Below are positions 1 through 14,485 of a stretch of DNA of 14,490 bases, in pieces (the first letter of the stretch is position 1; every line of letters begins with the position of its first letter). Source of the stretch: a virus (lineage: Duplodnaviria > Heunggongvirae > Uroviricota > Caudoviricetes); IMG/VR virus record IMGVR_UViG_3300044638_009648. The stretch is one strand, 5' to 3'. The translations under genes and the position numbers were made by a program. The notes under the pieces were generated by a model. That model was not told the DNA's origin and made no database searches. It saw nothing but the letters and a program-made list of their open reading frames with translations.

Positions 1-1628
1 CTACTGGAACTAGCGGTACTTCAGGAACATCAGGTACAAGAGGAACATCCGGTACAAGTGGTACATCAGGAACCTCAGGTACTTCTGGTACTTCAGGAAC
101 AACGGGTACTTCTGGTACTTCAGGAACAACGGGTACTTCAGGTACTTCAGGTTCGACTGGAACTTCGGGTACAAGAGGCACTTCCGGAACTTCGGGTACA
201 TCAGGTACTTCTGGCTCATCTGGTTTTGATGGCGCATCAGGAACAAGTGGTACTTCAGGTACAACCGGTACATCTGGTACTTCAGGTTCTTCTGGAACAA
301 GTGGTACTTCGGGTACATCAGGCACAAGAGGAACATCTGGTACTTCAGGTACTTCTGGTACTTCAGGTACTTCTGGTTCAACAGGAACCTCTGGTACTTC
401 AGGCACAACAGGAACCTCTGGTACTTCAGGCACAACTGGAACCTCTGGTACTTCAGGTACTTCTGGTTCGACTGGAACTTCGGGTACAAGTGGAACAACT
501 GGAACTAGCGGAACCTCAGGAACTACGGGTACATCTGGTACTTCAGGTTCTACTGGAACTAGCGGTACTTCGGGTACATCAGGTACAAGAGGAACTTCAG
601 GAACTAGTGGTACTTCAGGCACAACCGGTACATCAGGAACAACTGGAACTTCAGGTACTTCAGGTTCTACTGGAACAAGTGGTACTTCGGGTACATCAGG
701 TACAAGAGGAACTTCAGGAACTACGGGTACTTCTGGAACTTCAGGAACTACGGGTACATCTGGTACTTCAGGTTCTACTGGAACAAGTGGTACCTCGGGT
801 ACATCAGGTACAAGAGGAACTTCTGGTACTTCAGGAACATCTGGTTCTTCAGGGGTAGTTAACATTCTTGATAATTCTAACGACAGAATATTAACAGCAA
901 CTGGAAATCCAGCAGAAGCACAAGCTGAATCTAACTTCACCTTTAACGGCTCCCAAGGTAGAATAAGTTATTCTACAAGTGGAACCGGAGCATTTTTTGC
1001 TGTAATAAATTCAGGTGCGGGAGACGCTGCATATTTTGCTAATGCAGGTGGTGAAGAATATATCTTCGGTGTTGATAATAGTCTAGCATCAAATGCATTT
1101 GTTATTGGTCGTGGACAAGATTTAGCGACCGACCCAATGATGAGTTGGGAAAATGCATTGACCCGGAGTCTCCAAGACATGGGCTTCGAAGACCTATATT
1201 CAATCAATAATTTATTGAATTTGTCAATGACAGGTACTTTGGAAGGTAATGGTATTGCAAACCTATTCAACTTTGACCAAATTACTGCAAATTCAAAATC
1301 ATTTGATATTCCTCACCCAACTAAAAATGGTTGGAGATTGAGATATGGTAACCTGGAAGGACCTGAACACGGAGTTTATTATCGCGGAAAAACAACATGT
1401 AATGTAATTGAATTACCGGATTATTGGACTGGACTTGTTTACCAAGAAGGATGGACTGTACAACTTACACCAATTGGCGGTCCTTGTGTCCACTGGGTTG
1501 AAAAAATTGAAAACAATAAGGTTTATATCAATTGTCAGGATGGTGAACCAAATTGTTTCTACACAATTTTCGCAGAACGTAAAGATGTACCAGGTGTTCT
1601 TCTGGAATACAAACCAACACAAGAATGA
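1..1628 (+). CDS. 5'-partial collagen-like (Gly-Thr-Ser)n fibre protein, probable phage tail/surface fibre, with globular C-terminal domains
   Basis: I translated frame 3 (codons from nt 3) by hand. It is open from the window edge through the GTS repeat and on through GVVNILDNSNDRILTATGNPAEAQAESNFTFNG...GEEYIFGVDNSLASNAFVIG. It then runs in frame into the track's 1137..1628 ORF (KSFDIPHPTK..RLRYGNLEGPEHGVYYRG..IELPDYW), which ends at TGA 1626-1628. The ATG at 1137 is internal. Confidence 0.88.
   Translation, partial: TGTSGTSGTSGTRGTSGTSGTSGTSGTSGTSGTTGTSGTSGTTGTSGTSGSTGTSGTRGTSGTSGTSGTSGSSGFDGASGTSGTSGTTGTSGTSGSSGTSGTSGTSGTRGTSGTSGTSGTSGTSGSTGTSGTSGTTGTSGTSGTTGTSGTSGTSGSTGTSGTSGTTGTSGTSGTTGTSGTSGSTGTSGTSGTSGTRGTSGTSGTSGTTGTSGTTGTSGTSGSTGTSGTSGTSGTRGTSGTTGTSGTSGTTGTSGTSGSTGTSGTSGTSGTRGTSGTSGTSGSSGVVNILDNSNDRILTATGNPAEAQAESNFTFNGSQGRISYSTSGTGAFFAVINSGAGDAAYFANAGGEEYIFGVDNSLASNAFVIGRGQDLATDPMMSWENALTRSLQDMGFEDLYSINNLLNLSMTGTLEGNGIANLFNFDQITANSKSFDIPHPTKNGWRLRYGNLEGPEHGVYYRGKTTCNVIELPDYWTGLVYQEGWTVQLTPIGGPCVHWVEKIENNKVYINCQDGEPNCFYTIFAERKDVPGVLLEYKPTQE
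6..854 (+). repeat. Coding 9-nt periodic repeat encoding (Gly-X-Y)n, with X/Y mostly Thr/Ser
   Basis: A Gly codon occurs every 9 nt from 6 to 852 (95 positions) with no break in register. The triplets are GTS, GTT, GST, GSS, six GTR (AGA at 39, 174, 327, 588, 705, 813) and one GFD-GAS (222-239). Confidence 0.97.
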
Positions 1629-1632
1629 AAAT

Positions 1633-1663
1633 AAATGGGGGTCAGTGACCCCCATTTTTCTTT
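1633..1663 (+). terminator. Intrinsic (Rho-independent) terminator after the fibre gene
   Basis: There is a perfect 11-bp stem, AAATGGGGGTC (1633-1643) / GACCCCCATTT (1647-1657), with loop AGT. The 3' arm runs into TTTTTCTTT, and the stem starts 4 nt after the stop. The A-rich 5' flank could make it bidirectional. Confidence 0.85.
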
Positions 1664-1694
1664 ATATTACTTTCAGTTTTTATATCATTTAATA

Positions 1695-2600
1695 ATGAAT
1701 TGGATTGAATTATTTATATTTGAAATTGAAGGAAATAAATACAAAATAACGTATACCGGTACAGAACCAATTACGGTTAATATATCGACAAAACTAATTG
1801 GTATAAACGAAGTTGAATCAACAATCAGATTCAACTTCAAACAAAAAAACATGTGGTTTATTCCAAGTTTAGATTATAGAGGTTGTTCTTTCATTTCTTT
1901 CAGAAACCAACAGACTGGAGAATTTCTATTCGACAAGTTAATTGATAAAAATTTGTCAAATGGCGTGAAAGGTCAAAATCTTATTTGTCTAGGTTTAAAC
2001 AAAGCCGGAACGACTTCATTTAGTGTTGGCATGCAAAAATTAGGATTTAAAAAATTTCCTGAACCATATCAATTTCAATACATACAAACTGACACATATC
2101 ATGGTGATTTTGGTAAGTTATTTTCAATTCTAGAAAATCCAAAATACAATTTATTTAACGACAAACCCTTTTCATTTCCAAGAATTTATGAAAAAATTTA
2201 TTCGCAAAGACCGAATGATATTTATGTTTTGACTTTACGTAAAAATGCAAAAGTTTGGGCAAAAAGCGTAATAAAATTTTATGATTGTTTAAAGAATAAC
2301 GATTTCAGAATGGATAAATCTTATATTAACACCAAGTTTTCTGATGACAGTAGTCGTTATTTAATCAATTTTTTAGAACCCATGTTTGAATCTTGGAAGC
2401 TTGATTCTATGGAAAATTTAGAAGAAAAATTAGTAAAAATTTACGATAAACACATTGAAGATTGTGTATCTTTTTTTAAAGATAAAAAAAATTTCTACAT
2501 AGTTGAAATTGAAAAAAATGGGGAGCTGAAAAAATTTGCCACTTGGTTGGGTATCGAAACAACTGAACAAAATTTTCCCTGGGAAAATAAAAATACTTAA
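1695..2600 (+). CDS. Sulfotransferase family protein (P-loop-like, PAPS-dependent) with an extra ~90-aa N-terminal domain
   Basis: ICLGLNKAGTTSF (motif at about 1992-2018) matches the 5'-phosphosulfate-binding loop G-L-x-K/R-x-G-T-T-S. YVLTLRKNAKVWAKS resembles the 3'-phosphate-binding strand/helix. I moved the start from 1635 to ATG 1695 because 1635 lies inside the terminator stem. Confidence 0.8.
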   Translation: MNWIELFIFEIEGNKYKITYTGTEPITVNISTKLIGINEVESTIRFNFKQKNMWFIPSLDYRGCSFISFRNQQTGEFLFDKLIDKNLSNGVKGQNLICLGLNKAGTTSFSVGMQKLGFKKFPEPYQFQYIQTDTYHGDFGKLFSILENPKYNLFNDKPFSFPRIYEKIYSQRPNDIYVLTLRKNAKVWAKSVIKFYDCLKNNDFRMDKSYINTKFSDDSSRYLINFLEPMFESWKLDSMENLEEKLVKIYDKHIEDCVSFFKDKKNFYIVEIEKNGELKKFATWLGIETTEQNFPWENKNT

Positions 2601-2602
2601 GA

Positions 2603-3562
2603 TTAATTCAGTATTAATAAAATTTCACCAATTAATTTGGAGTTTGAATCAAAACTTTTGATAATAATTTCGTCTAACTTGTTTTGATTGTCAAAAAACA
2701 AGCAATAGACCAACTTGGCTTCCAGGTTTGCGAAGTTATAATATACAAGTAAATTACCATCCCTATCATACAGTTTGATTGTAGTTTCCTCTAAATTTTT
2801 CAATGGCGAAAAAGAAATTGAATTTTCTTGATAGCGCCAACCACCAATACTGCCACCAACAAAATAATATAAATCACTCATCAATTCAGCTCTTTTAGGC
2901 AATGGATAACCGGTAACGTGAACAATAAAATCTCCTATTTCCCAAACATTATTATTTGCATAAGGGTTACTAAAAATCATGTGAGGAGAATTTATTATCC
3001 AAAAACGATTTAATAGTTTTTCTTCGATTACATTACAATGCTCTTTGAATTTTTCTTTATTTATTGTTATTCGAGCTTGTCTTTGTTCGTAGTCAAAAGT
3101 GTTTAAAGGCATATTTTCGGGCCAATCCGGCGCATTCCATATATCTTGTAAAATTTCTTTTCCTATTTTGGTGTTCTGCACTATGAATTGACTTGTAATA
3201 ACAGTTTCCGTACCCTGAGGGTTGATAACCGGATTGTCAATTGCCTTTGTATTATGAGCAGGTACTATAAAAGAATATTTGTCATCTAAAAGCGATTCTA
3301 ATTTTACGGAAGGGTTCATTATTAGACAGTCCGCATCTAAAAAGAAAACCCATTTATAATTAGAATTTTGTAAAGTTTCTAAACTAACTTTAATTTTATG
3401 CCACTGTGCCCCTCTATCATTATCGACATTTTCTTGTTTATCTATAAGAAAACTATAACCATGTAATCGACAATAATTTTCAACGTTTTTTGTAGAAACA
3501 TCAGCAATAGCTTGATAATTTAAATCGTAAGAAAGGATTATACAAATTTCAGATGGATGCAT
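2603..3562 (-). CDS. GT-A glycosyltransferase, GT34-like (GMA12/MNN10 galactosyltransferase type), with a ~78-aa C-terminal extension
   Basis: The motifs NYCRLHGY, QWHKI, WVFFLDADCLIMN (DxD), YEQ and GDFIVHVTG occur in the order typical of the GT34/GMA12-MNN10 family. Confidence 0.75.
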   Translation of the reverse strand: MHPSEICIILSYDLNYQAIADVSTKNVENYCRLHGYSFLIDKQENVDNDRGAQWHKIKVSLETLQNSNYKWVFFLDADCLIMNPSVKLESLLDDKYSFIVPAHNTKAIDNPVINPQGTETVITSQFIVQNTKIGKEILQDIWNAPDWPENMPLNTFDYEQRQARITINKEKFKEHCNVIEEKLLNRFWIINSPHMIFSNPYANNNVWEIGDFIVHVTGYPLPKRAELMSDLYYFVGGSIGGWRYQENSISFSPLKNLEETTIKLYDRDGNLLVYYNFANLEAKLVYCLFFDNQNKLDEIIIKSFDSNSKLIGEILLILN

Positions 3563-3572
3563 TTCGTATGAT

Positions 3573-6500
3573 TTAATTGAGTAGGTATTCTATTTTATTA
3601 ATCACCATTTTTGCTGAAATGGACGTGTGACACTCGAATTGTCTTGGGGTTCCTTTATGTTCAGGACACCAATCCCAATCACCTTTGTCAAACGTAAATT
3701 GAGGTTTATTCCAGCAACCATTACAAACATTTGGGTTTGTAATTCTTGTGCAGTTGGATACAAATTCGTGGTCAGGAGCGGTAAAATTGGAAATCATTAC
3801 AACATGTTTGCCCATTCCCCAAGATAACCAAGACAAACCGCTTGATAGTCCAATAAAAAATTCACTATGGTGAATTACATTCATTGTGTTTTCTATCGAG
3901 GTATCCTTAATCTTAACAACACCATTAAATGGGTTGTCTTCTTTAGATACGTTAACAACCATATACCCTTTTGAGTTTAAAAAATTAGCTAATTCTTGCC
4001 ATGCTTCTCGGGTCCAAAATTTTAATCCTGCGGTAGAGTTTGTTGCGATTGTTACGTACTTTTTATTAAAAGGTCTCTTACCTATTTTGTAGTTGATTCT
4101 TGGTTGAATTTCTTTATGTTCTAAACCCAAAATATTTGAGGCACATTCCTGTAAAGATATTAAGTTAGGTTGGACTGGTTCCAAATCAGAATTATAAAAC
4201 CAACCTAATTTATACATTGCAATTAAATTATGTATTGTAGAACCCGGTTCTACAAACTGAAGTTCAGGATACACTGATTTGAATAATTTATTCCAAAATG
4301 TTGAAACAATAACCTTGCATTTATGTTTATTTTGAAATTCCAAAACATAAGGAATCCAAGCAACACTATCACCCAAAGATTTGCTATCAAAGGTTATTAA
4401 CACTCTTTGATTAGTTAAATCCAAAACTTTATCATAGATAAGTTTATTATCCTGGTAAATTTTTGTATTCCACTTTGTATAATATTCTCGATTTAATTTA
4501 ATCCAATGGTTAGATTTAAGGTTATTTCTATAATAACAAGAGCCATCTTCTTCGAAAATTTCAATTTTAAAATCACTATCAGAATCACCTAAAACTTCCA
4601 AAAAAGGTTGATTAACAAAGTGTTGAATTATTTTTACTTCAGTTTCTTGTTTTTCATTTTCAAAAACTGGTTGATTAATCATTTTAAGATATAAATTAGC
4701 ATGTTTGTTAGCAAAATCCTTAGATTGTCCCTCAGGTACTAAATAACAAACATCCTTTGAAACCAATTCAATAAGTTTGTTTTTTGTAAGTTCCAAATCT
4801 TCAGTAATTGGTGTGATATATTCATCAAACATTCCCATGTACTCTTTTAAGTTTCTGGCCAAAATCTTTTTTCCAAAAGAAATTGCTTCACGTAAAACAA
4901 GTGGGTTACACTCCCATGTTGAGTTAAACATGAATATATCGGCTGCTTGGATAAATAATGAAGCATCCTTACGTTCCCCCCATACTCTAACATTTGAAGG
5001 AACGTTTTTCATTAAAGGTCCCCAATATTCCTCAAAATTAACTGCTTGATTCCCTATGAAATGAAACTCATATTCTGGGTTTGTTTTTTCAAACAAACGA
5101 GCAATTTCTAAACCCTCCTTTTGATTTTTACCTGGTGTCCACAAACCGACATTAACAACATGAACTTTATCGGTGTCAAAACCAATAGCTTCTTGTATTC
5201 CCTTTTTAATTTCGTCCGGGGTAGATAAGGTATCAATCGGAAATTCAACAATTTCAGAATAAGAAGGCATTGTTGCAAACGAAACTTCTTTATGCCATGG
5301 ACTACAGAAAGCATAGGCATCAGGGTGAAATTGCTTAGACAATTGTGCATTGAATGATACGTTATGACAAGTTTCAATAATTCTCCAGGTACGGTTATTA
5401 TCATATAAAGCATTCATCAAAGCAACGGGTGTTTGATGAAACCCACTCAAAGCTTCGATATTATCATCGATGTGAACCAAGTCAATTTTATATTTTTTCA
5501 AAATATCAATTAACTCAAGTTTATTTTCACCTAAAGTAAAAAATCTTTTTTCAGAAATGATGTTTTTTAAGTGGTTTTTTTGAACAATATACTCATCACT
5601 GTAATTTGCATATTCCACAATAAAGATTTCAAACTCATTTCTAAATTCCTGAAGAGTTAAAATTCTTTTCAAAAGAAAACCAGGCATTCCACCTGTTGAA
5701 AGGTGGGGGGCCAGAAAAAGTATTCTTGGTTTATTCTTTTTGTTATTTTCCAAAAGTTCAAATATTTTATCAATTTCGTTTTGATTTTTAACACCATGAA
5801 AAACTTTAATGGTTTGTTTTTCTTTTGGTAATCTATAAAAATCTGAAACAAGCGTGTCATGGTCAGTTTCGTTTTCCAAAAAATGTTGAACCGTATCGGA
5901 AGAAACGGCATTGATATAAACCATGGGTAAAGCACAATCCTTGAATTTCCATTTAAGAACGTTAAAAATTGTTTCTTCATGTAAAGGTGCCTTTGCAAAC
6001 GAACTTGTTACCTTGGGAATAAGGTTCTTAACATCCCTCCATAGCTCAAGAAACGGTAAAACTTTATCAGTACCAACAAGAATATTAGTTGTGCAATAGA
6101 CGCCTCTCTGAGTTGGTTCCATATGAAAAAAATTCATCATAGGCCACTCTAAAGTTGCCGTCAAATCCAAAGAGCCGTCATTCTTCCAAAAAGGATTTCC
6201 ATCCAGGTGCCCATCCTGATATGTTATAAGAACATATTCATGGGGACCCTTTGTTGCCAATGGAATATTATCAACATCCGGGATGTAATCAAAAAGTTCA
6301 TCTACGTTTATATTCGCAATACTATCACTATCGATGTAAACCCATTCTTTTAAGCCGTCCTTAACTGATTGTATCATCACATCAATTTTAGCACTCAGGG
6401 TATAATAAACATTAATGCTATCCCGGTTTACATAGAAATTATTTGAATTAATAAATAAATCCTTTTCAGTTATCTGGGGAATGTTTAAATCTAACCTTTT

Positions 6501-6653
6501 ACAAATTGCATGCTCCTGCAAAGTTTCCGAAGCATCGTAATCAATAGTATAAACAGTTAACGGGTTGTTGGAATGTTTTTTTAAACTCTTTGCTAAATTT
6601 ATGGTGACGTTTTCATAATTTTGCGTTGTATGGGTAATAAAAGATTTTGACAT
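3573..6653 (-). CDS. Triple glycosyltransferase fusion: N-terminal GT-A (DxD) domain, GT4 (GT-B) domain and C-terminal Aah/TibC-like autotransporter heptosyltransferase domain
   Basis: The GT-A domain (about 6653-5742) has WVYIDSDS and HEETIFNVLKWK. The GT4 domain (about 5729-4671) has RILFLAPHLSTGGM, NVGLWTPGKNQ and ADIFMFNSTWECNPLVLREA. The heptosyltransferase-like domain (about 4640-3573) has RVLITFDSKSLGDSVAWIPY, STAGLKFW, FIGLSSGLSWLSW and CNGCWN..WCPEHKGTPRQFEC. I placed the start at ATG 6653, 1 nt after the upstream stop at 6655; the track's ATG at 6695 overlaps the upstream gene. Confidence 0.85.
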   Translation of the reverse strand: MSKSFITHTTQNYENVTINLAKSLKKHSNNPLTVYTIDYDASETLQEHAICKRLDLNIPQITEKDLFINSNNFYVNRDSINVYYTLSAKIDVMIQSVKDGLKEWVYIDSDSIANINVDELFDYIPDVDNIPLATKGPHEYVLITYQDGHLDGNPFWKNDGSLDLTATLEWPMMNFFHMEPTQRGVYCTTNILVGTDKVLPFLELWRDVKNLIPKVTSSFAKAPLHEETIFNVLKWKFKDCALPMVYINAVSSDTVQHFLENETDHDTLVSDFYRLPKEKQTIKVFHGVKNQNEIDKIFELLENNKKNKPRILFLAPHLSTGGMPGFLLKRILTLQEFRNEFEIFIVEYANYSDEYIVQKNHLKNIISEKRFFTLGENKLELIDILKKYKIDLVHIDDNIEALSGFHQTPVALMNALYDNNRTWRIIETCHNVSFNAQLSKQFHPDAYAFCSPWHKEVSFATMPSYSEIVEFPIDTLSTPDEIKKGIQEAIGFDTDKVHVVNVGLWTPGKNQKEGLEIARLFEKTNPEYEFHFIGNQAVNFEEYWGPLMKNVPSNVRVWGERKDASLFIQAADIFMFNSTWECNPLVLREAISFGKKILARNLKEYMGMFDEYITPITEDLELTKNKLIELVSKDVCYLVPEGQSKDFANKHANLYLKMINQPVFENEKQETEVKIIQHFVNQPFLEVLGDSDSDFKIEIFEEDGSCYYRNNLKSNHWIKLNREYYTKWNTKIYQDNKLIYDKVLDLTNQRVLITFDSKSLGDSVAWIPYVLEFQNKHKCKVIVSTFWNKLFKSVYPELQFVEPGSTIHNLIAMYKLGWFYNSDLEPVQPNLISLQECASNILGLEHKEIQPRINYKIGKRPFNKKYVTIATNSTAGLKFWTREAWQELANFLNSKGYMVVNVSKEDNPFNGVVKIKDTSIENTMNVIHHSEFFIGLSSGLSWLSWGMGKHVVMISNFTAPDHEFVSNCTRITNPNVCNGCWNKPQFTFDKGDWDWCPEHKGTPRQFECHTSISAKMVINKIEYLLN

Positions 6654-6654
6654 T

Positions 6655-7275
6655 TTAATATTTTTTTTTGAAATACCAAGTACCAAACCATTCACTAGTA
6701 AATCTTGGTGTATAATTGTTTTCTAAACAAAATTCATCCACAGCGGGATTAACCCCAAAAACTCCGGCATATTTTGTTCCTTCTGGATTAGAATCATCGT
6801 ACATCCAAATGTGTTTGTCTTTACCATTTTCGGCAAAGGGGGGGGTCTCCCAATTCATGTCAATATAATCATGACCCATTACCCACCCTCCGGGCTTTAC
6901 TTTAGGGTACCAACATTCAATATCTTCTTTCACAAAGTCGTAAGCGTGATTTGCGTCAATATAAATAAAATCCAAACTATTGTCCTGAAAAATTTCTGAA
7001 CCAATCTTGGATGTTGTTCTAATCATGATTGCCCTATTTTCATAACCTTTTATGTTTTTCATGCAATCTCCATATACTCCACCATCGAAATTTTTATGAT
7101 TTGATGCGTCAGTATACTCATCACCTAGTTCATCCCAGACATCAACCATATAAAGTTTCCCTGACCAAATGTCCATAATTTGTTTCGAAAATTCACCTTT
7201 AAATGTACCGATTTCAACACCAGTTTTTACGGTTGAATCTTCAAAAATCTTTTGAAATAATTCTATTCTATTCAT
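6655..7275 (-). CDS. Class I SAM-dependent methyltransferase (Methyltransf_24-like)
   Basis: It contains GVEIGTFKGEFS (motif I), MVDVW, LDFIYIDANHAYDFVKEDI and VKPGGWVMGHDY. This family is commonly found in glycan-modification clusters. Confidence 0.88.
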   Translation of the reverse strand: MNRIELFQKIFEDSTVKTGVEIGTFKGEFSKQIMDIWSGKLYMVDVWDELGDEYTDASNHKNFDGGVYGDCMKNIKGYENRAIMIRTTSKIGSEIFQDNSLDFIYIDANHAYDFVKEDIECWYPKVKPGGWVMGHDYIDMNWETPPFAENGKDKHIWMYDDSNPEGTKYAGVFGVNPAVDEFCLENNYTPRFTSEWFGTWYFKKKY

Positions 7276-7278
7276 ATT

Positions 7279-9531
7279 TTAAAAATTAATCTTTTGTGTT
7301 TGTATGTCAATAATTTTAGACATTTCGTTCATCTTATTTGGATTTTTTTCTCCGTGTAAAAAATAAATGTGTTTTAGTTCTCCAGGAACGGCAAACCAAG
7401 GCGCTAACATTTGAACCTGACCGTTGAACTCATGTGAAAATATCCTATCAATATTTTCGAGCGTACTATTAACATACACAATATGTAAACCTGAGAAAAT
7501 TTTATGTTTCCAAAGTAACACATTCATAATTGTTTCTTCATGATATGCCGCATACTCAGCAGGATTTTTAAGTATTTTAGGATGAGTACACATCCAATAC
7601 CATTCTTCTAAAAATTCGATTGTTTTTTGAGATGCTATAAAATATCCGGTTTGTCTATACCAGGTTCTTACAGATTGGTCCACATTAAAAATCTGACAAG
7701 CTTTACTTTCTAAAGTATTATTGAAATTATCACCATCAGCCGCATGACCCACATTATTATATGACAAGTAATCGTAGAAACATTCAGTGAAAAAAGGGTG
7801 CTCACAATTTACATCATAGTGGTTAAAAATATTTTCAACCCAAGGCATAACAACAGTGTCACTATCAAGGTAAATTAATGTTTCCAGAAAATTTTCAAGA
7901 CAGTGTTTTACAATTAGCGGTCTTTGAATTAATAAATTATAAAATCTTTTGTCGTGTCTAACAATATAAAAATTATCTTCATTATTTTGATACATTTGAT
8001 TATCAAAAGTCTCAAGGTCGACTGACCAATTGACACTTGTGACATTTTCAATCTCAAAATTGTGTTCGCAATTAATAAGATAAACGTATACCGGTAAATT
8101 GGAGTACTTCCTTAAAATTTGTACTGATTGTTCTACAATAGGAATATATTTTTCATTACAGTAGTATACGAATCCCTTTGATTTTTTACCTCGATTTGCT
8201 AAAACCTCTGTTTTAGGAATTGGAAGTGCGTTCCAATAAGAATTCTCGATAATATTTTCATAATTTTCATATTTTTCCTCGTTATCAGAATAGCCGCCTG
8301 ACTGGTTAAAAATCATAGGAATAGTTATACCAAAATTAAAAGTTTTGAGTTCGTAAAAATGTCTAAATCTGAATTTATCATTCGAAATATCGTTTAAAAA
8401 CATGTCAATTGTACATTTGTATAATTCATGTTCAGGGTTGTCAAAATTTGATAAGTGTTCTACAATATGTTCCACAACATGACGGTGGTAAAAAAATCCA
8501 TGTGCACAAAGTAATTCTTTGAAACTTCCGTGACTATTACCATTAGGTTGAATTTTACTCCTGGGTAATAATTTTGTTCCTAGAGCTATTACATCGTAAG
8601 TTTCCGATGTTTCAGTCCAGTTTTCAAATATTAAATCCAAATCTTTTTCACTTACCCCATCCAAAAGTTTTATGTCATCCTCCAAGAGCACCATCGACGT
8701 GTTATTTGAGGCTAAAAATTTTTTAAAAATATTAAGTTGAGATAATGTGCAACCAAATTTTTTTAAATCTGAGTTATCGATTATTTCTCCATCAAAAAAA
8801 TTGTATCCTCTAAATCCTAATGAACTTAGTAACGCATCAACTTTTTTTCGTCTATCATCTCTAAAAGGTAAATTTAATATAAATGCTTGGTCAGCAACTT
8901 TTTTATTTTTGTAAAAAAACCCTTTTTTAGTTAATAGAACGTCCTCCGGCAAAATTTCGTAGTCGTAAATATCAAATTGTGTTAACAATTCGTTTAGTTC
9001 TTCCTGAGTTGCGTAGCCGTTATTTTCGAATAATATTTTGTCAGCATACAATTCTGGATGTTTTTGACATATTCGCAAATAATCTTTTAATATTATAATA
9101 TCATGACCTTCAGTATCGATTTTCAAAAAATTAATTCCACCAATCCCATATTCTTTGACAAGGATTTCCCAACTAATTTTTGGTACTTCACTAATAGACA
9201 CAATATTGTCATACAATTCTTCCCCAATAAATTTTCGTGTGTATTCGTGAGGTGAATTTATGCTATTGCATCCCCTTACCCAAAATGGTAAGTTATATTT
9301 TTCCATGTTTTCTTGTGAAATATAATAAATTGAAACGAATCCGGCCTCATCACTCATTGCCGCATTGACCTTTATTACATTTTCTTTATCCGGTAAATTA
9401 TTCAAATAAAACCCCAAAGGTTCTATACTTAACCCAACAGTAGTTTCAGAAGCACTTTCAATTAAAGTATGAAAATCTGAAGTTCCGATTTCTATAAAAT
9501 CGTAATTAATTTTATTTCTTGTCATTCTCAT
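7279..9531 (-). CDS. Three-domain fusion: FkbM-like methyltransferase, GT25-like glycosyltransferase and GT-A (DxD) domain
   Basis: The FkbM-like domain (about 9507-8923) has FIEIGT, SIEP, VNAAMSD and LKIDTEGHD. The GT25-like domain (about 8895-8227) has FILNLPFRDDRR, GCTLSQ and VLLEDD. The C-terminal GT-A domain (about 8181-7306) has LIYLDSDT, HEETIMNVLLWK and LHGEKN. The start could be 9531 or 9525. Confidence 0.8.
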   Translation of the reverse strand: MRMTRNKINYDFIEIGTSDFHTLIESASETTVGLSIEPLGFYLNNLPDKENVIKVNAAMSDEAGFVSIYYISQENMEKYNLPFWVRGCNSINSPHEYTRKFIGEELYDNIVSISEVPKISWEILVKEYGIGGINFLKIDTEGHDIIILKDYLRICQKHPELYADKILFENNGYATQEELNELLTQFDIYDYEILPEDVLLTKKGFFYKNKKVADQAFILNLPFRDDRRKKVDALLSSLGFRGYNFFDGEIIDNSDLKKFGCTLSQLNIFKKFLASNNTSMVLLEDDIKLLDGVSEKDLDLIFENWTETSETYDVIALGTKLLPRSKIQPNGNSHGSFKELLCAHGFFYHRHVVEHIVEHLSNFDNPEHELYKCTIDMFLNDISNDKFRFRHFYELKTFNFGITIPMIFNQSGGYSDNEEKYENYENIIENSYWNALPIPKTEVLANRGKKSKGFVYYCNEKYIPIVEQSVQILRKYSNLPVYVYLINCEHNFEIENVTSVNWSVDLETFDNQMYQNNEDNFYIVRHDKRFYNLLIQRPLIVKHCLENFLETLIYLDSDTVVMPWVENIFNHYDVNCEHPFFTECFYDYLSYNNVGHAADGDNFNNTLESKACQIFNVDQSVRTWYRQTGYFIASQKTIEFLEEWYWMCTHPKILKNPAEYAAYHEETIMNVLLWKHKIFSGLHIVYVNSTLENIDRIFSHEFNGQVQMLAPWFAVPGELKHIYFLHGEKNPNKMNEMSKIIDIQTQKINF

Positions 9532-9578
9532 TAAACAAATTAGTTCAAAAAATAAGAAATAAATTAAAAAGTTAAAAT

Positions 9579-9746
9579 CTAATTAATTTTCTTTTTGGTT
9601 TCTAACATATCCATCAGCTTTAAGGATTTTCTATAATTTTCTTCTAAACGGTCAACTTCTTCTAAAGGTAAACCTTTTTCTACGCTGGAGTTATATTGTA
9701 CTTCAGCTTCTTGAATAATTTTTTCTATAGTTTTTAAAAGCCTCAC
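9579..9746 (-). CDS. Small hypothetical charged helical protein (about 55 aa from GTG 9746; 74 aa if ATG 9803 is used)
   Basis: The ORF is co-oriented with, and at the head of, the glyco operon. Its sequence (LKTIEKIIQEAEVQYNSSVEKGLPLEEVDRLEENYRKSLKLMD) looks amphipathic-helical. The 9747-9803 extension looks like AT-rich intergenic DNA. Confidence 0.55.
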   Translation of the reverse strand: MRLLKTIEKIIQEAEVQYNSSVEKGLPLEEVDRLEENYRKSLKLMDMLETKKKIN

Positions 9747-9848
9747 ACCAATAAATATATTCAATATTTTCTTTATTTTGTTATTGTTTATACAAGCCCT
9801 CATTTAGAAAAAAACTAATGGGGTATTTATCAATAGTAAAAAACAGGG
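9747..9848. promoter_or_regulatory. Divergent intergenic control region between the glyco operon (-) and the Cys/Thr-Pro genes (+)
   Basis: Genes diverge from this AT-rich gap, so promoters are expected here. TATTTAT occurs on - (9757-9751) and on + (9824-9830), each just upstream of a start codon. The function of the motif is unproven. Confidence 0.4.
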
Positions 9849-12800
9849 ATGTGTACGATAGTAAGTAGTATGCGGTATAGTACCGTCAGCAAAAATGCTG
9901 CATGTACTTCACCGAGTATTGATAGTTTTTATGTAAGTCCGCTTTCAGCACCGGCTGTCGGTCAATTCTTGTTTTTAGATTCTGGATGTAGTACTGCTCT
10001 ACCTAATGGTTGGTATATCGATTATAATGTGGACCCTAACATTGTCTATGTTGTTACAGGTGGCTCTGGAGAAATTACCTCACAGGATGTTTGTTCTATT
10101 GAAACACCAACTCCAACACCAACTCCTACTGAAACACCAGTCATTTATACGTATTTTATACAAAATTGTTGTAATGCTGCAGATGTTTGGCGCATTACCT
10201 CCCTTACGGACTTATCCTGGGTGGACGGGGAAACACACAGTGTTAAATTATCATCCCCCGGCGGACTAAATCCGACCGATGGGTGTTACACAATAATTCC
10301 AACTTCTGATACATTTAGTGACTACACTTGGGGAATTTCTGACATCACCAGTGGTCCATTTGGTAATTGTGATGATTGTTTTACCAACGTACCTTCTTTT
10401 ACCGTTTGTCCGACCCAAACCCCCACAGTAACACCCACTCAAACTACTACTACTACACCCACGCCTACACCTACTATTCCTTGTGGAAGATTAGGGAACA
10501 CGTCGTTTGAAGAATTTGCGACTTGTGGTGGCCCTTGTGTTGGTAACGATTGTCTAGCCCCAACAACCTTTAGGCAATACCCACAGGAATGTATTCCTTA
10601 TTGGCAAACCACGGCACCTGACAATTTGATTGAAATTTGGAAATCTGGATATCTTACGGTACCATCTTATTCGGGTGATTATTTTGCTGAAATTAATGCT
10701 AGCTCATCAGCAGCACAAGCATTATTTCAGAATTTTACAGCAAATATTAGCCAAGAGTATCAGTTACAATTTGCTCACCGAGGAAGAGTATCTTTCTTGA
10801 ACACAATGAGAGTTGGCTTAAGCGGTGTGACAAGTGGTATTGTATATTTTCCTGGTGTCTATACTGGTAGTACAACTGCATGGAGTTTTAATACGGTAAA
10901 TTTTGTTGCGGCAGAAACTGAATATAATCTTATTTTTTCTGCAACAAGTTCGGAAGCTGGTGGAAACTTTTTAGATTCTATTAATATTGTTTGTTCGGCA
11001 GAATTTGCAGCAACACCAACTCCAACACCAACACCCACAACAACACCCACAGAAACTGCAACAAACACACCAACACCAACAAATACAACAACACCCACAA
11101 GCACGCCCAATTATGACTTTTATGTGGCACAAAATTGTTGTTCGCCATTTAATATTATTACAATAGGATTACCTCAAGGGACTTCATTCAACCAAGATGC
11201 CGGTGTCATATACAATGGGGAATATTATGTAATAGTGGGTAATGGTAGCGCTCCAGCTGTGCAACTTTACTTGACCACAATTGATGACATTTGTTTATCA
11301 GTAACATGTCCAACATCGACCCCTACACCGACAGGAACAGAAACACCAACTCCAACACCAACAAATACTGAAACCCCCACACCCACAACAACAGGCACAC
11401 AAACTCCAACCCCAACAAGCTCTGAACCATTAAACATTTACCTTTTAGAATCTTGTTGCAACGGTAGTCAATTTAGATTCCAAAATGTTATGGGTAATTT
11501 AGTTGAAGGAGATACCTATAAAATTTCAGGTTCACTCGATTTTAATGGTTGTGCAACAGTTTTACCATACGCTAGTATTGATGTGATTTATGATTCTTTG
11601 GGTGTAACATTTACCCCTTTTGTTGGAGATTGCAACGCTTGTATTTTGGATGAACCATGCCCAAGTCAAACTCCAACCCCAACTCCTACGGTCACACCAA
11701 CAAATACAATTACGCCAACAATTACATCTACTCCGACACACACTAATACCAGTACACCAACACCTACAGGCACTCAAGCACCTCCTTCGGAAAATGCCCT
11801 TTTAGCACGATGCGATGACGGTACCATTTTTTATGCGATAGTACAACAAGATGTTGCCTTTGTTGGTGCGACATACATTTACAATGATGAGTGTTACCAG
11901 TTTGTTGAATTTTCTGGACCTGGCGGACCTAGTTTCGGTGAGCCAGATTTTATTAGTTGTGATTTTTGTATTATACCACCAACACCATCACCTACTCCCA
12001 CCAACACCACGACACCCACAACCACCCCAACGGTAACCCCAACACCATCATCGACGCCCCCAGCATGTGATGTTAATAGTTTTTGTTTTGACACTATTTT
12101 ACCCTCACTTTCGGGTTACAGTGGTACCTACACTCCAGGTGGTTCTTATAACTCGCGAATTTACTATACAGGCACTTCGATTCCCACCGCATACATTTAT
12201 TATACTGGAGAATATTGGTGTTTGAGTGAAACGCTTGGTGGAACTTGTTTATTAGAAGGTAATAAACCATGTTATTCAGCGTGTCCGGATATTTCGGCAA
12301 ACTATTTTAGCGAGGGGGCGTGCCCACCACCAACACCACCTCCAGTAGATTGTAGTTTATTGGATTTCACCGCATTTTTTGATTGTGATTTTGTTCCATT
12401 CACAACACCAACGCCATCAATACCTTGTGATTTAGTGGATATGAGGGTTACAGCATTTCCTGTTTCCCCAACCCCAACGCCAACTCAAAATGCTTGTGTT
12501 GTTAGTTTGAGTTTCTCGATGGTTAGATACACACCTCCAGGACCAACACCTTCACCAACATTAACCTTAACGCCATCAAAAACGGTTCCAGTAGAAGGTC
12601 AGATAACTTATACTTTCTTTGAGGAAACATTTGTTTGTCCAACAACTAAAGTTCTTGTTGATTGTAACAGTAATTTAGAATTTTATACGTCACAAACTTT
12701 AGAGTTTGACGGAAGCCCAATTAATATTGGTGTCTCATTTGCCACATACATTGATGGAACATTCTTCTGTTTAAGGTATGACCGAGATGATGATAACCTT

Positions 12801-13619
12801 TCATCAAATGTAACAATTGATTCTATTTTCAACATATACGGTAGTTGCGAACAATGTAATTCAATCGCAACCCCTACACCAACCAATACTCCAACAATAA
12901 CTCCAACACCAACGGTAACGGCATCTATGACACCAACTCCAACTAGAACACCTCAAAATTTAGTTTATGTGTTTGCAACTTGTGCTTTGAATCCACAAGG
13001 AGGTAATCAATCGACTATTGTTCAAACAAGTCCAGTTGCCTTTAACATTGTACCAAATCAAACGTTTAGGGACAACGCAAATAATTGTTGGATTTATGTG
13101 GGTAGCTTCACAAATTATTCGCCGGAATACATTACAATTTTAGTTAATTATTCAGGAAATTATTTTACTGGATTGTTACCAACGGTTTACGCAAATTGTC
13201 AAGCATGTCAGTCTGCGCCTGTGGGTCAAGGACTAACACCAATTGATGGTCAAGAACCAATTGCTCGATGCGTAAGTTATGATGTTTTACCATGGACACA
13301 AAACCTACCAGATTCCTGTGGTGGCTACACAAGAGAACAAAACAGGGTTATTGTTCAACTGAGAAATTCTGTGACAAATGCAATAATTCAAGCAACTAGT
13401 AATGTTGTAATTACCTTTGATGTTTTGTATAATGATTGTTTAGGTAGTCAAACTGAAACTTTGACTGTAACAATTTTACAGGGCCAAACACAAGGGCAAG
13501 CTATTTTCGATGCTACAAGTTGCGAAATTTGCCCATTATCAATATTACCAGAAACCGTTACAAGGTCTATTGTTGGAATACAATCCATAACACCTTCTTC
13601 AATTAACCAATGTCAATAA
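9849..13619 (+). CDS. Large modular Cys-rich protein with Thr-Pro linkers, six related Cys modules and a jelly-roll-like domain; probable virion surface/appendage protein
   Basis: This is a 1256-aa ORF with 56 Cys (my count) and repeated TPTPT linkers between 60-90 aa modules. There is no hydrophobic signal peptide or transmembrane segment. An alternative start is ATG 9870. Confidence 0.85.
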   Translation: MCTIVSSMRYSTVSKNAACTSPSIDSFYVSPLSAPAVGQFLFLDSGCSTALPNGWYIDYNVDPNIVYVVTGGSGEITSQDVCSIETPTPTPTPTETPVIYTYFIQNCCNAADVWRITSLTDLSWVDGETHSVKLSSPGGLNPTDGCYTIIPTSDTFSDYTWGISDITSGPFGNCDDCFTNVPSFTVCPTQTPTVTPTQTTTTTPTPTPTIPCGRLGNTSFEEFATCGGPCVGNDCLAPTTFRQYPQECIPYWQTTAPDNLIEIWKSGYLTVPSYSGDYFAEINASSSAAQALFQNFTANISQEYQLQFAHRGRVSFLNTMRVGLSGVTSGIVYFPGVYTGSTTAWSFNTVNFVAAETEYNLIFSATSSEAGGNFLDSINIVCSAEFAATPTPTPTPTTTPTETATNTPTPTNTTTPTSTPNYDFYVAQNCCSPFNIITIGLPQGTSFNQDAGVIYNGEYYVIVGNGSAPAVQLYLTTIDDICLSVTCPTSTPTPTGTETPTPTPTNTETPTPTTTGTQTPTPTSSEPLNIYLLESCCNGSQFRFQNVMGNLVEGDTYKISGSLDFNGCATVLPYASIDVIYDSLGVTFTPFVGDCNACILDEPCPSQTPTPTPTVTPTNTITPTITSTPTHTNTSTPTPTGTQAPPSENALLARCDDGTIFYAIVQQDVAFVGATYIYNDECYQFVEFSGPGGPSFGEPDFISCDFCIIPPTPSPTPTNTTTPTTTPTVTPTPSSTPPACDVNSFCFDTILPSLSGYSGTYTPGGSYNSRIYYTGTSIPTAYIYYTGEYWCLSETLGGTCLLEGNKPCYSACPDISANYFSEGACPPPTPPPVDCSLLDFTAFFDCDFVPFTTPTPSIPCDLVDMRVTAFPVSPTPTPTQNACVVSLSFSMVRYTPPGPTPSPTLTLTPSKTVPVEGQITYTFFEETFVCPTTKVLVDCNSNLEFYTSQTLEFDGSPINIGVSFATYIDGTFFCLRYDRDDDNLSSNVTIDSIFNIYGSCEQCNSIATPTPTNTPTITPTPTVTASMTPTPTRTPQNLVYVFATCALNPQGGNQSTIVQTSPVAFNIVPNQTFRDNANNCWIYVGSFTNYSPEYITILVNYSGNYFTGLLPTVYANCQACQSAPVGQGLTPIDGQEPIARCVSYDVLPWTQNLPDSCGGYTREQNRVIVQLRNSVTNAIIQATSNVVITFDVLYNDCLGSQTETLTVTILQGQTQGQAIFDATSCEICPLSILPETVTRSIVGIQSITPSSINQCQ
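10491..10991 (+). other. Galactose-binding-like / DUF642-like beta jelly-roll domain within the 1256-aa protein
   Basis: The pattern GNTSFE...W...IEIW..G...SGDYFAEINA...LFQ...YQLQFAHRGR...W...LIFSA..GGNFLDSINI is typical of CBM-like beta-sandwiches in bacterial surface proteins. Confidence 0.55.
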
Positions 13620-13840
13620 TGGCGGTACAAGTTACTATTAACAGCATTGTAGGAACACAACCTTATCAGGTTTACATTTGTCAACCTGGCAATACGGGTT
13701 GTTTTTATATTGATGAAATAAACAACGGGGACGTCCCTTATGTTTTTGACATTCCAGCACCTTATGATAATGCAAATAGTTATTTATTAAAAATAATCGA
13801 CAACTTTGGTTGCATAATTTCAGGAACTACATCAGTATAA
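13619..13840 (+). CDS. Small (73 aa) beta-rich Cys-containing hypothetical protein, probably structural
   Basis: ATG 13619 overlaps the upstream TAA (TAATG). The protein is paralogous to the N-terminus of the next ORF, which supports it being real. Confidence 0.8.
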   Translation: MAVQVTINSIVGTQPYQVYICQPGNTGCFYIDEINNGDVPYVFDIPAPYDNANSYLLKIIDNFGCIISGTTSV

Positions 13841-14485
13841 ATGCCAATAACAGTCAACATACAATCCGTTACCGGGAATACTCCAGTAAACATTTTTGTT
13901 TGTGAAAGTGGGGGTGGTGGTTGCACTTACGTAGCTACCGTTGCAATTTTCCCATATCAGTTCCTTGTTGACGATACTTATGCGACTGAGGATTTCTTGG
14001 TGAAAATAATAGACACTGCTGATTGTGTGGATGAGGTTCCAATATTAATAACTCCATCGCCAACACAAACTCTTACCGCAACACCTACAAGAACGCCGCC
14101 ATCAACACCGACCCCGACTAAAACGCCAACCCCTACAATTACACAAACTAGCACTGCACGGGTTACGCCCTCACCAACACAAACAGGTACACCGACACCA
14201 ACACCAACAAGTTTAGTTTATTCACATTTAATTGGAAGATTCTTATACGCATCCTCAACTTCAGCTTGTTTAGACACTTATTTATCCACATCTTATTATA
14301 CTTCATATGTAGAAACACCCACTATACCGGTAATTGGTGCTAGAGTTTATCAAACAACTTTTGGTGGCGGTTTATTTACGCCAGTAAATCAAAACAACCA
14401 GTGGAGAAAAATGGTATTTAATAGCTCAAACTATGCGGTTCAAATTGACACCTCTGGTTACATAATAAATTTTGTAGCTTGTTAA
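13841..14485 (+). CDS. Two-domain Cys-containing protein with a central Thr-Pro linker, probably structural
   Basis: The start directly abuts the upstream TAA. The protein has an N-domain (aa 1-70), a Thr/Pro linker (aa 71-123, about 14051-14209) and a C-domain ending in FVAC. An ATG at 14487 may begin the next gene. Confidence 0.82.
   Translation: MPITVNIQSVTGNTPVNIFVCESGGGGCTYVATVAIFPYQFLVDDTYATEDFLVKIIDTADCVDEVPILITPSPTQTLTATPTRTPPSTPTPTKTPTPTITQTSTARVTPSPTQTGTPTPTPTSLVYSHLIGRFLYASSTSACLDTYLSTSYYTSYVETPTIPVIGARVYQTTFGGGLFTPVNQNNQWRKMVFNSSNYAVQIDTSGYIINFVAC

Follow-up and report, generated by a model that had tools for sequence, protein, structure and literature searches.

The locus and its phage origin

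Here we describe a 14,490-nt stretch of DNA (the window; all coordinates refer to the whole stretch) from the Caudoviricetes record IMGVR_UViG_3300044638_009648 of IMG/VR, in which a cassette of predicted glycan-modifying enzymes adjoins the gene for a collagen-like Gly-Thr-Ser fibre. The window holds eight main genes, g1–g8, plus a 74-codon open reading frame (ORF). Five adjacent genes (1695–9531) form the cassette and carry nine catalytic domains: six glycosyltransferase (GT), two methyltransferase and one sulfotransferase. One of the GT domains, at the C-terminus of g4, resembles the protein O-glycosyltransferases TibC and Aah, and in many phage lineages the gene for this domain lies beside a Gly-Thr-Ser fibre gene. 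The genes and the hairpin that follows the first of them are:

3–1628, plus strand: g1, collagen-like fibre gene, 5' end open
1633–1657, both strands: terminator-like hairpin, 11-pair stem with 6 G-C pairs and T-rich tails
frame from 1635, likely 1695–2600, plus strand: g2, predicted sulfotransferase
2603–3562, minus strand: g3, GT34-like GT-A
3573–6695, minus strand: g4, GT-A / GT4 / TibC-like fusion
6655–7275, minus strand: g5, Methyltransf_24
7279–9531, minus strand: g6, FkbM / GT25-type / GT-A fusion
9579–9803, minus strand: ORF of 74 aa at the head of the minus-strand cassette
9849–13619, plus strand: g7, 1256 aa, Thr-Pro-linker protein
13841–14485, plus strand: g8, 214 aa, two Thr-Pro linkers

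Seven metagenome contigs share the identical cassette, the 74-aa ORF being called as a gene on six identical-cassette contigs, and a 58.6-kb contig of the same phage extends into RuvC-like, primase, exonuclease and SbcD genes. Relatives of g4 are encoded on at least 80 IMG/VR contigs. The nearest clade keeps the same gene order and includes a complete 321-kb genome with terminal repeats (g4 49% identical), which encodes a T4 gp23-type capsid protein (4.6e-62) and a large terminase; the capsid proteins nearest to it come from a 484-kb megaphage, Microcystis phage Mel-JY01 and Flavobacterium phages. Judged by these sequences, the window is part of a large T4-like freshwater (lake) phage. The T4-type capsid and terminase genes of the relatives rule out a cellular polysaccharide locus, so that the phage assignment made in the sequence-only reading of the window stands; the same genes, with the PHROG context, led us to reject a giant eukaryotic virus. 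Other carriers of the TibC-like gene are complete phages of about 100 kb with no gp23 match, and these are a different lineage.

A megablast search against GenBank phages matched the window in the collagen repeat only. G+C content is about 30% over the enzyme genes and 40–47% in the flanking genes, the repeats of the latter using G+C-richer codons. Promoter-like sites are not enriched in the window (63, against 57 +/- 9 in shuffled sequence).

A TibC/Aah-family domain at the C-terminus of g4

3573–4628, minus strand: TibC/Aah-family domain (g4 residues 690–1040), from the match to 4RAP and the TIGR04414 score

Over its last 350 residues, g4 matches the TibC structure 4RAP (E 8e-50) and reaches 278.2 bits on TIGR04414, the Aah/TibC equivalog (cut-off 200; profile positions 27–372 of 374), compared with 24.8 bits on lipopolysaccharide heptosyltransferase I (cut-off 185); there is also a weak Pfam GT9 match. 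Active-site residues were compared through the 4RAP alignment and an 81-row MAFFT alignment in which the window stands with 80 phage homologues, 73–75 of which have a residue in any given column. Asp-110 of TibC, which we take to be the catalytic base, is Asp in 4RAP and Ala in 4RB4 among the aligned entries. In the TibC structure paper (PMC4358343), Thr-226 and Lys-230 touch the beta-phosphate, Trp-305 touches the heptose, and cysteines 339, 342, 358 and 370 form an iron finger. The window has Asp776, Thr888, Lys892 and Trp956 at the positions of Asp-110, Thr-226, Lys-230 and Trp-305, and all four are kept in the 73–75 phage homologues, save that Thr-226 is replaced by Ser in three. The iron-finger positions (Cys991, 994, 1010 and 1022) are invariant in the 74–75 homologues with a residue there, and from these cysteines we predict an iron finger in g4. 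We therefore assign the domain, as a prediction, to the bacterial autotransporter heptosyltransferase (BAHT) family of protein O-glycosyltransferases; the Aah/TibC-like label first given from the letters of the DNA is borne out by the curated equivalog score and the kept catalytic residues.

Of the 150 cluster representatives nearest to the domain, 135 exceed 450 aa. In one record (G127, 32512–33567, the record of L162) the TibC-like gene has a single in-frame TGA, possibly a broken gene or a recoded stop.

The enzyme families in the cassette also bear on a second interpretation, in which the cassette builds or alters the core or O-chain of the host lipopolysaccharide, its capsule or an S-layer glycan. 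Such remodelling would block superinfection or aid release, and the adjacency of the fibre gene would reflect a plastic host-recognition region. Lipopolysaccharide and cell-wall synthesis commonly involves enzymes of the GT4, GT25, GT9-like and GT34 families, the g4 domain does give its weak match to heptosyltransferase I, and this is the published reading for the GTs of pelagimyophage and cyanomyophage host-recognition clusters (PMC7029224; PMC12801897). However, the 278 bits on a protein-glycosylating equivalog stand against 25 on the lipopolysaccharide enzyme, and the kept iron finger is, in TibC, used for recognition of the protein substrate (PMC4358343). With the linkage described below, which follows fibre chemistry inside a single genome as well as between contigs and for which a host-directed enzyme gives no reason, these points make envelope remodelling decidedly unlikely.

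Gly-Thr-Ser fibre genes and their linkage to TibC-like genes

The 541 aa of g1 are the 3' part of a giant collagen-like gene, more than 4 kb long on the sister contig L001, and the contig ends within its repeat. We counted 95 Gly-X-Y triplets, with Ser or Thr filling 97% of the X and 92% of the Y positions and proline at none; such long, uninterrupted repeats place g1 in the Pfam Collagen family (PF01391, E 2.9e-41). Bacterial collagens have about 19–31% Pro at X (PMC8968730), and zero proline is thus atypical. The repeat runs into a phage-specific C-terminal domain of 216 aa, which matches phrog_28536 and phrog_17490 and has viral neighbours without exception in the Atlas, while PHROG tail-fibre families match g1 by way of the repeat. 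A trimeric triple helix may form here and is a candidate structure for the fibre. A wrong reading frame for the repeat was rejected, the Gly-Thr-Ser frame being free of stops into the PHROG-matched C-terminal domain. Directly 3' of the g1 stop codon lies the strong two-way hairpin, which overlaps an ATG at 1635.

Contig ends fall within the Gly-Thr-Ser repeat at position 1 of the window and in L003–L005, L011, L012, L015–L017 and L324, and gene callers choose wrong frames in it (in L001, three plus-strand calls over a minus-strand fibre gene). Assemblies therefore make the fibres look shorter than they are.

To survey linkage we predicted ORFs in each of the 80 related loci and marked those that were collagen-like, counting a TibC-like gene as linked if a collagen gene of the Gly-Thr-Ser type lay no more than 5 kb away and dereplicating on the enzyme domain at 90% or 70% identity. 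Where the flank is long enough, a large collagen-like gene almost always lies 0–3 kb from the TibC-like gene, usually convergent with it, and the repeats of these neighbours are nearly always of the Gly-Thr-Ser type (Ser/Thr 70–97% at both variable positions, proline essentially nil). Linkage was found in 32 of 35 informative clusters at 90% identity and in 18 of 19 at 70%. It persists whether the enzyme is a GT-A–GT4–TibC fusion, an FkbM- or GT25-prefixed fusion of up to 1581 aa, GT4–TibC alone or a set of separate genes, and despite changes of strand and gene order (L071, L074).

Whole genomes give the same picture. In three ~100-kb genomes, two complete and one 82% complete, no collagen match in the whole record is more than 5 kb from the TibC-like gene. 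Of four collagen-like genes in the 321-kb genome, the one at the cassette is of the Gly-Thr-Ser type and the other three, some 45 kb off, are of the Gly-Ala-Gln type. These three stand in tandem (G001 268000–276000; 703, 810 and 878 aa; Gly-Ala-Gln / Gly-Pro-Thr type), so that one phage has two fibre chemistries.

The reverse test started from the fibres: viral contigs were sampled by DNA pattern, coding for either (Gly-Thr-Ser)3 or (Gly-Pro-X)4, and the whole records were searched for the TibC-like domain. A TibC-like gene was present in 25 of 99 Gly-Thr-Ser contigs, as opposed to one of 46 Gly-Pro-X contigs (odds ratio 15, Fisher p = 3.5e-4), the contig medians being alike (32 and 26 kb, respectively). 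Just four of 50,697 GenBank phage records have the gene. The expected co-occurrence of the cassette with (Gly-Thr-Ser)n genes thus holds over many phage lineages, in both directions of testing.

The linkage also bears on whether the cassette might instead act on the DNA of the phage, or on proteins of the host, adhesins for instance. T4-like phages glycosylate their DNA, and GTs of DNA-hypermodifying viruses are known (as cited in PMC12619734); the natural substrates of TibC are bacterial adhesins (PMC4358343). None of the nine domains, however, falls in a known DNA glycosyltransferase family, and neither DNA nor a host protein accounts for a linkage to fibre chemistry, which leaves these targets very improbable.

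Other enzyme domains of the cassette

1695–2600, plus strand: Sulfotransfer_4 PF17784 (g2), 44.9 bits against a cut-off of 22.8
2603–3562, minus strand: GT34-like GT-A (g3), PF05637, 59.9 bits against a cut-off of 23; DXD motif D-A-D
5706–6695, minus strand: GT-A (g4 residues 1–330), motif D-S-D; paralogue of the g6 C-terminal domain
4629–5705, minus strand: GT4, a GT-B (g4 residues ~331–689), Glycos_transf_1 40 bits, Glyco_trans_1_4 30.5 bits
6655–7275, minus strand: S-adenosylmethionine-dependent methyltransferase Methyltransf_24 (g5), Pfam 61 bits
8917–9531, minus strand: FkbM methyltransferase (g6 residues 1–205), PF05050, 35.2 bits
8212–8916, minus strand: GT25-type GT-A (g6 residues ~206–440), motif E-D-D; COLGALT1-like model
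7279–8211, minus strand: GT6/GT8-like retaining GT-A (g6 residues ~441–750), motif D-S-D; from model alignment

The count of six GT, two methyltransferase and one sulfotransferase domains in five genes, proposed before any database had been searched, is sustained throughout by Pfam, NCBIfam and structure alignment. We found no PHROGs match for the glycosyltransferase genes of the window. A DXD-type motif is readable in all four GT-A domains. The product of g2 is a predicted sulfotransferase, with both the Sulfotransfer_4 score and a motif, NKAGTTS, resembling the loop that binds 3'-phosphoadenosine-5'-phosphosulfate. Its start is most likely 1695, since the hairpin covers the ATG at 1635; gene callers chose 1695 on sister contigs, and it gives 301 aa. 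For g4 the start is probably the ATG at 6653, 14 codons in (1026 aa), as called on a same-phage contig.

The N-terminal 330 residues of g4 align with g6 residues 440–750 (BLASTP 1e-23, 25% identity), and a GT-A fold is predicted for them from the model of this g6 paralogue. The AlphaFold model of g6, made from a 35-sequence homologue alignment, has a mean predicted local distance difference test score (pLDDT) of 87.5. Its GT25 part scores below the Pfam cut-off (21.6 against 24 bits), and homologues 61–65% identical carry PF01755. In the model, residues 204–424 align with the human COLGALT1 catalytic domain (Z 18.0, root-mean-square deviation 3.0 A over 194 residues), and Mimivirus R699, LH3 and COLGALT1 are the top Foldseek rows for the domain; by its modelled fold and E-D-D motif, then, the middle domain of g6 counts as CAZy GT25. 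Residues 448–731 align with retaining GT-A enzymes of the GT6/GT8 type (Z ~16; ABO transferases, alpha-1,3-galactosyltransferase, BoGT6a).

Relatives fuse FkbM with sulfotransferase, GT32, GT4 and TibC domains in many combinations, which argues for one shared pathway. Homologues of ~471 aa (P0072–P0087) join an FkbM domain straight to a sulfotransferase domain (PF13469/PF00685), and such fusions suggest that methylation and sulfation act in one pathway in this gene pool.

Thr-Pro-linker proteins beside the cassette

On the other side of the cassette, about ten Thr-Pro linkers (267 linker residues) connect the small Cys-rich modules that make up g7. Its N-terminal half is variable, while a core (residues 530–1125) is found conserved in over 700 metagenomic proteins that lack annotation. 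A model of residues 740–1256 (pLDDT 66) shows beta-rich modules separated by disordered linkers and found no match in the PDB at E <= 0.001; the sole clear viral match of this part is an uncharacterised phage protein. Within the variable half, residues 214–385 (10488–11003) resemble DUF642 and galactose-binding-like carbohydrate-binding modules (Atlas 0.95, 177 shared features), a lead only. The gene after g8 (L324:13746–15449) encodes a third Thr-Pro-linker protein, with SprB repeats (4e-15) and g7-like Tyr...Cys-Cys modules.

By composition, g7 and g8 may be extra substrates, though support for this is weak. Pro-Thr linkers in secreted bacterial enzymes carry O-glycosylation sites. One might then suppose that, besides the Gly-Thr-Ser fibre, the cassette decorates the Thr-Pro linkers in g7, in g8 and in the gene that follows, giving a mucin-like coat. 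Three consecutive Thr-Pro-linker genes do flank the cassette, here and in L008–L018, and the window has six GT domains where the ~100-kb phages have three. Yet homologues of g7 and g8 adjoin the cassette only in this one clade of close T4-like jumbo phages (L008–L018), equally domain-rich cassettes adjoin a fibre alone (L065–L070), two of the four Thr-Pro-coding sites of the 321-kb relative are far from the cassette, and g7, whose family is unannotated, has no recognisable virion fold. The linkage of Thr-Pro genes may be plain shared synteny, and we regard the mucin-like coat as unlikely. The sequence-only reading, which had cast the Thr-Pro proteins and the fibre together as substrates of a virion glycocalyx system, was right about the flanking genes of the window, but the arrangement does not extend beyond the nearest clade. 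As the Thr-Pro genes are confined to close relatives, it is glycosylation of the fibre that is supported, not yet a whole-virion glycocalyx.

A proposed pathway for fibre glycosylation

We propose that the phage uses the cassette to O-glycosylate its own Gly-Thr-Ser fibre and to tailor the glycans on it, and put the probability of this at about 0.6. What is established here is family membership and gene linkage; each biochemical step is put forward on that basis. Inside the infected cell, g4 would use its TibC/Aah-type domain to attach the first sugar to Ser (perhaps Thr) of g1; the GT4 and GT-A domains of g4, the GT34 and GT25-type enzymes and the second GT-A would extend the glycan; and the two methyltransferases and the sulfotransferase would cap it. 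A helix without proline is expected to be unstable, and dense glycosylation would give the Gly-Thr-Ser helix hydration, stiffness and resistance to proteases. Glycosylated Thr confers such benefits in other collagen-like proteins; galactosylated Thr, for example, stabilises the cuticle collagen of Riftia. The collagen-like regions of BclA are glycosylated, which is thought to strengthen their hydration network (PMC8968730), and in mycobacteriophages phage-encoded GTs glycosylate the virion (Freeman 2023, as cited in PMC12619734). The fibre sugars could also join in host binding.

Several observations weigh against this proposal. The substrates on record for TibC are beta-helical autotransporters, not collagen-like helices. 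The linkage could merely reflect siting in a hypervariable host-recognition module, and GTs of aquatic phages are usually read as modifiers of the host surface (PMC7029224). The tail-fibre label of g1 rests on the collagen repeat and the phage-only C-terminal domain. About three quarters of the Gly-Thr-Ser contigs are without a TibC-like gene, most of them fragments but some 84–100% complete; the L076 group and L007 have a TibC-like gene with no fibre gene nearby; and a 735-kb megaphage has 179 kb between the two genes. Finally, Arg-286 of TibC, which touches adenine N1 and is the stated basis of ADP-sugar specificity (PMC4358343), corresponds to Thr937 in the window, and 71 of 75 phage homologues likewise have Thr there (the column having a high posterior probability), and searches of five related phage genomes for rfaE (domain II) and gmhA (SIS_2) found neither, so that any heptose would have to be supplied by the host. 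Given the lost Arg and the lack of heptose-pathway genes, we claim neither heptose transfer nor the use of an ADP-sugar.

A bolder version, doubtful though worth stating, is that proline-free Gly-Thr-Ser fibres are a distinct and widespread phage collagen that folds and functions only when densely O-glycosylated by a phage-borne TibC-type enzyme, the glycans being built from a new donor sugar and, in this phage, also methylated and sulfated. If so, a sugar would do the work done by hydroxyproline in animal collagen, bacterial viruses would gain their first reported sulfated glycoprotein structure, and the loss of the adenine-binding Arg would mean a new donor.

The components are of known kinds, namely BAHT enzymes, virion glycosylation in mycobacteriophages and glycosylated collagen-like filaments; their combination and its breadth are new. 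In a full-text literature search no paper joined heptosyltransferase, collagen-like protein and phage, and the literature that mentions TibC together with phages is unrelated to fibre glycosylation. Where GT clusters of aquatic phages are routinely read as modifiers of host surface or DNA, this locus and its relatives point to self-glycosylation of a host-recognition fibre. Were fibre glycosylation confirmed, virion glycosylation would extend from mycobacteriophages to abundant lake and ocean phages, jumbo phages included, the BAHT family would gain a second kind of substrate, and the stability of a proline-free collagen-like helix would be explained. It also bears on the contact of fibres with host glycans, on protease resistance and on escape from recognition.

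Comparison with known glycosylation systems

The closest known enzymes are TibC and Aah (BAHT; TIGR04414; 4RAP, 4RB4; PMC4358343), which, like g4, have a GT-B catalytic domain with an N-terminal barrel region and share with it the catalytic Asp, the Thr and Lys that touch the beta-phosphate, the Trp at the sugar and the iron finger of four cysteines. By this likeness g4 would also hyperglycosylate Ser of a long, repetitive fibrous protein. Unlike TibC, g4 is phage-encoded, and its TibC-like domain stands behind GT-A and GT4 domains. We found no autotransporter gene in the window or the related loci; the neighbour of g4 is a collagen-like Gly-Thr-Ser fibre rather than a beta-helix autotransporter. 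The adenine-contacting Arg-286 is Thr in g4, and as heptose-synthesis genes are absent from the related phages, the donor may differ from that of TibC. ADP-heptose transfer and dodecamer assembly are features of TibC.

In mycobacteriophages, phage-encoded GTs likewise act on the phage's own structural proteins (Freeman et al. 2023, PMC10527164, as cited in PMC12619734 and PMC12801897), but the enzymes are of other families and the targets described there are the C-terminal tails of capsid and tail-tube subunits. Here the hosts are aquatic, the proposed target is a collagen-like fibre, and methyltransferases and a sulfotransferase are added. The BclA filaments of Bacillus and Clostridioides spores (PMC8968730, PMC7157674) provide a parallel on the substrate side, with O-glycans on a collagen-like Gly-X-Thr surface filament and a dedicated GT encoded close by; BclA repeats, however, are proline-rich, in contrast to the proline-free g1 with Ser/Thr at X and Y, and the enzymes are unrelated. 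Among the collagen glycosyltransferases (COLGALT1, LH3, Mimivirus R699 and R655), the catalytic domain of COLGALT1 is structurally nearest to the modelled GT25-type domain of g6 (Z 18.0), but these enzymes act on hydroxylysine and the g1 fibre is essentially without lysine. A common GT25 fold is no proof of a common acceptor.

A cultured example and further observations

Microcystis phage Mel-JY01 (PP395634.1) is one of the four GenBank phage records with a TibC-like gene. Its 1226-aa gene, annotated as an FkbM methyltransferase, has a C-terminal TibC-like domain, and 1.7 kb upstream of this FkbM-to-TibC fusion gene there is a Gly-Thr/Ser-Ser repeat frame at least 1016 aa long. A cultured phage thus carries the pair of enzyme and fibre genes, which makes the glycosylation idea directly testable. 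The repeat frame itself (L325 2–3049, plus strand) is unannotated, two hypothetical coding sequences being annotated on the opposite strand instead, in what looks like a miscall of frame or strand.

The ~100-kb phages encode an 80-aa protein that ends in three runs of 7–8 Thr (L021:3378–3620, minus strand) and may be another O-glycosylation target. It is found at the same position in L029, L030, L036, L037, L044, L053 and L082, and adjoins a conserved 338-aa protein (phrog_4417). Also in L021, 2 kb from the enzyme gene, is a 370-aa phage protein with two PAS domains (6419–7531, minus strand; PAS_3, 3e-20).

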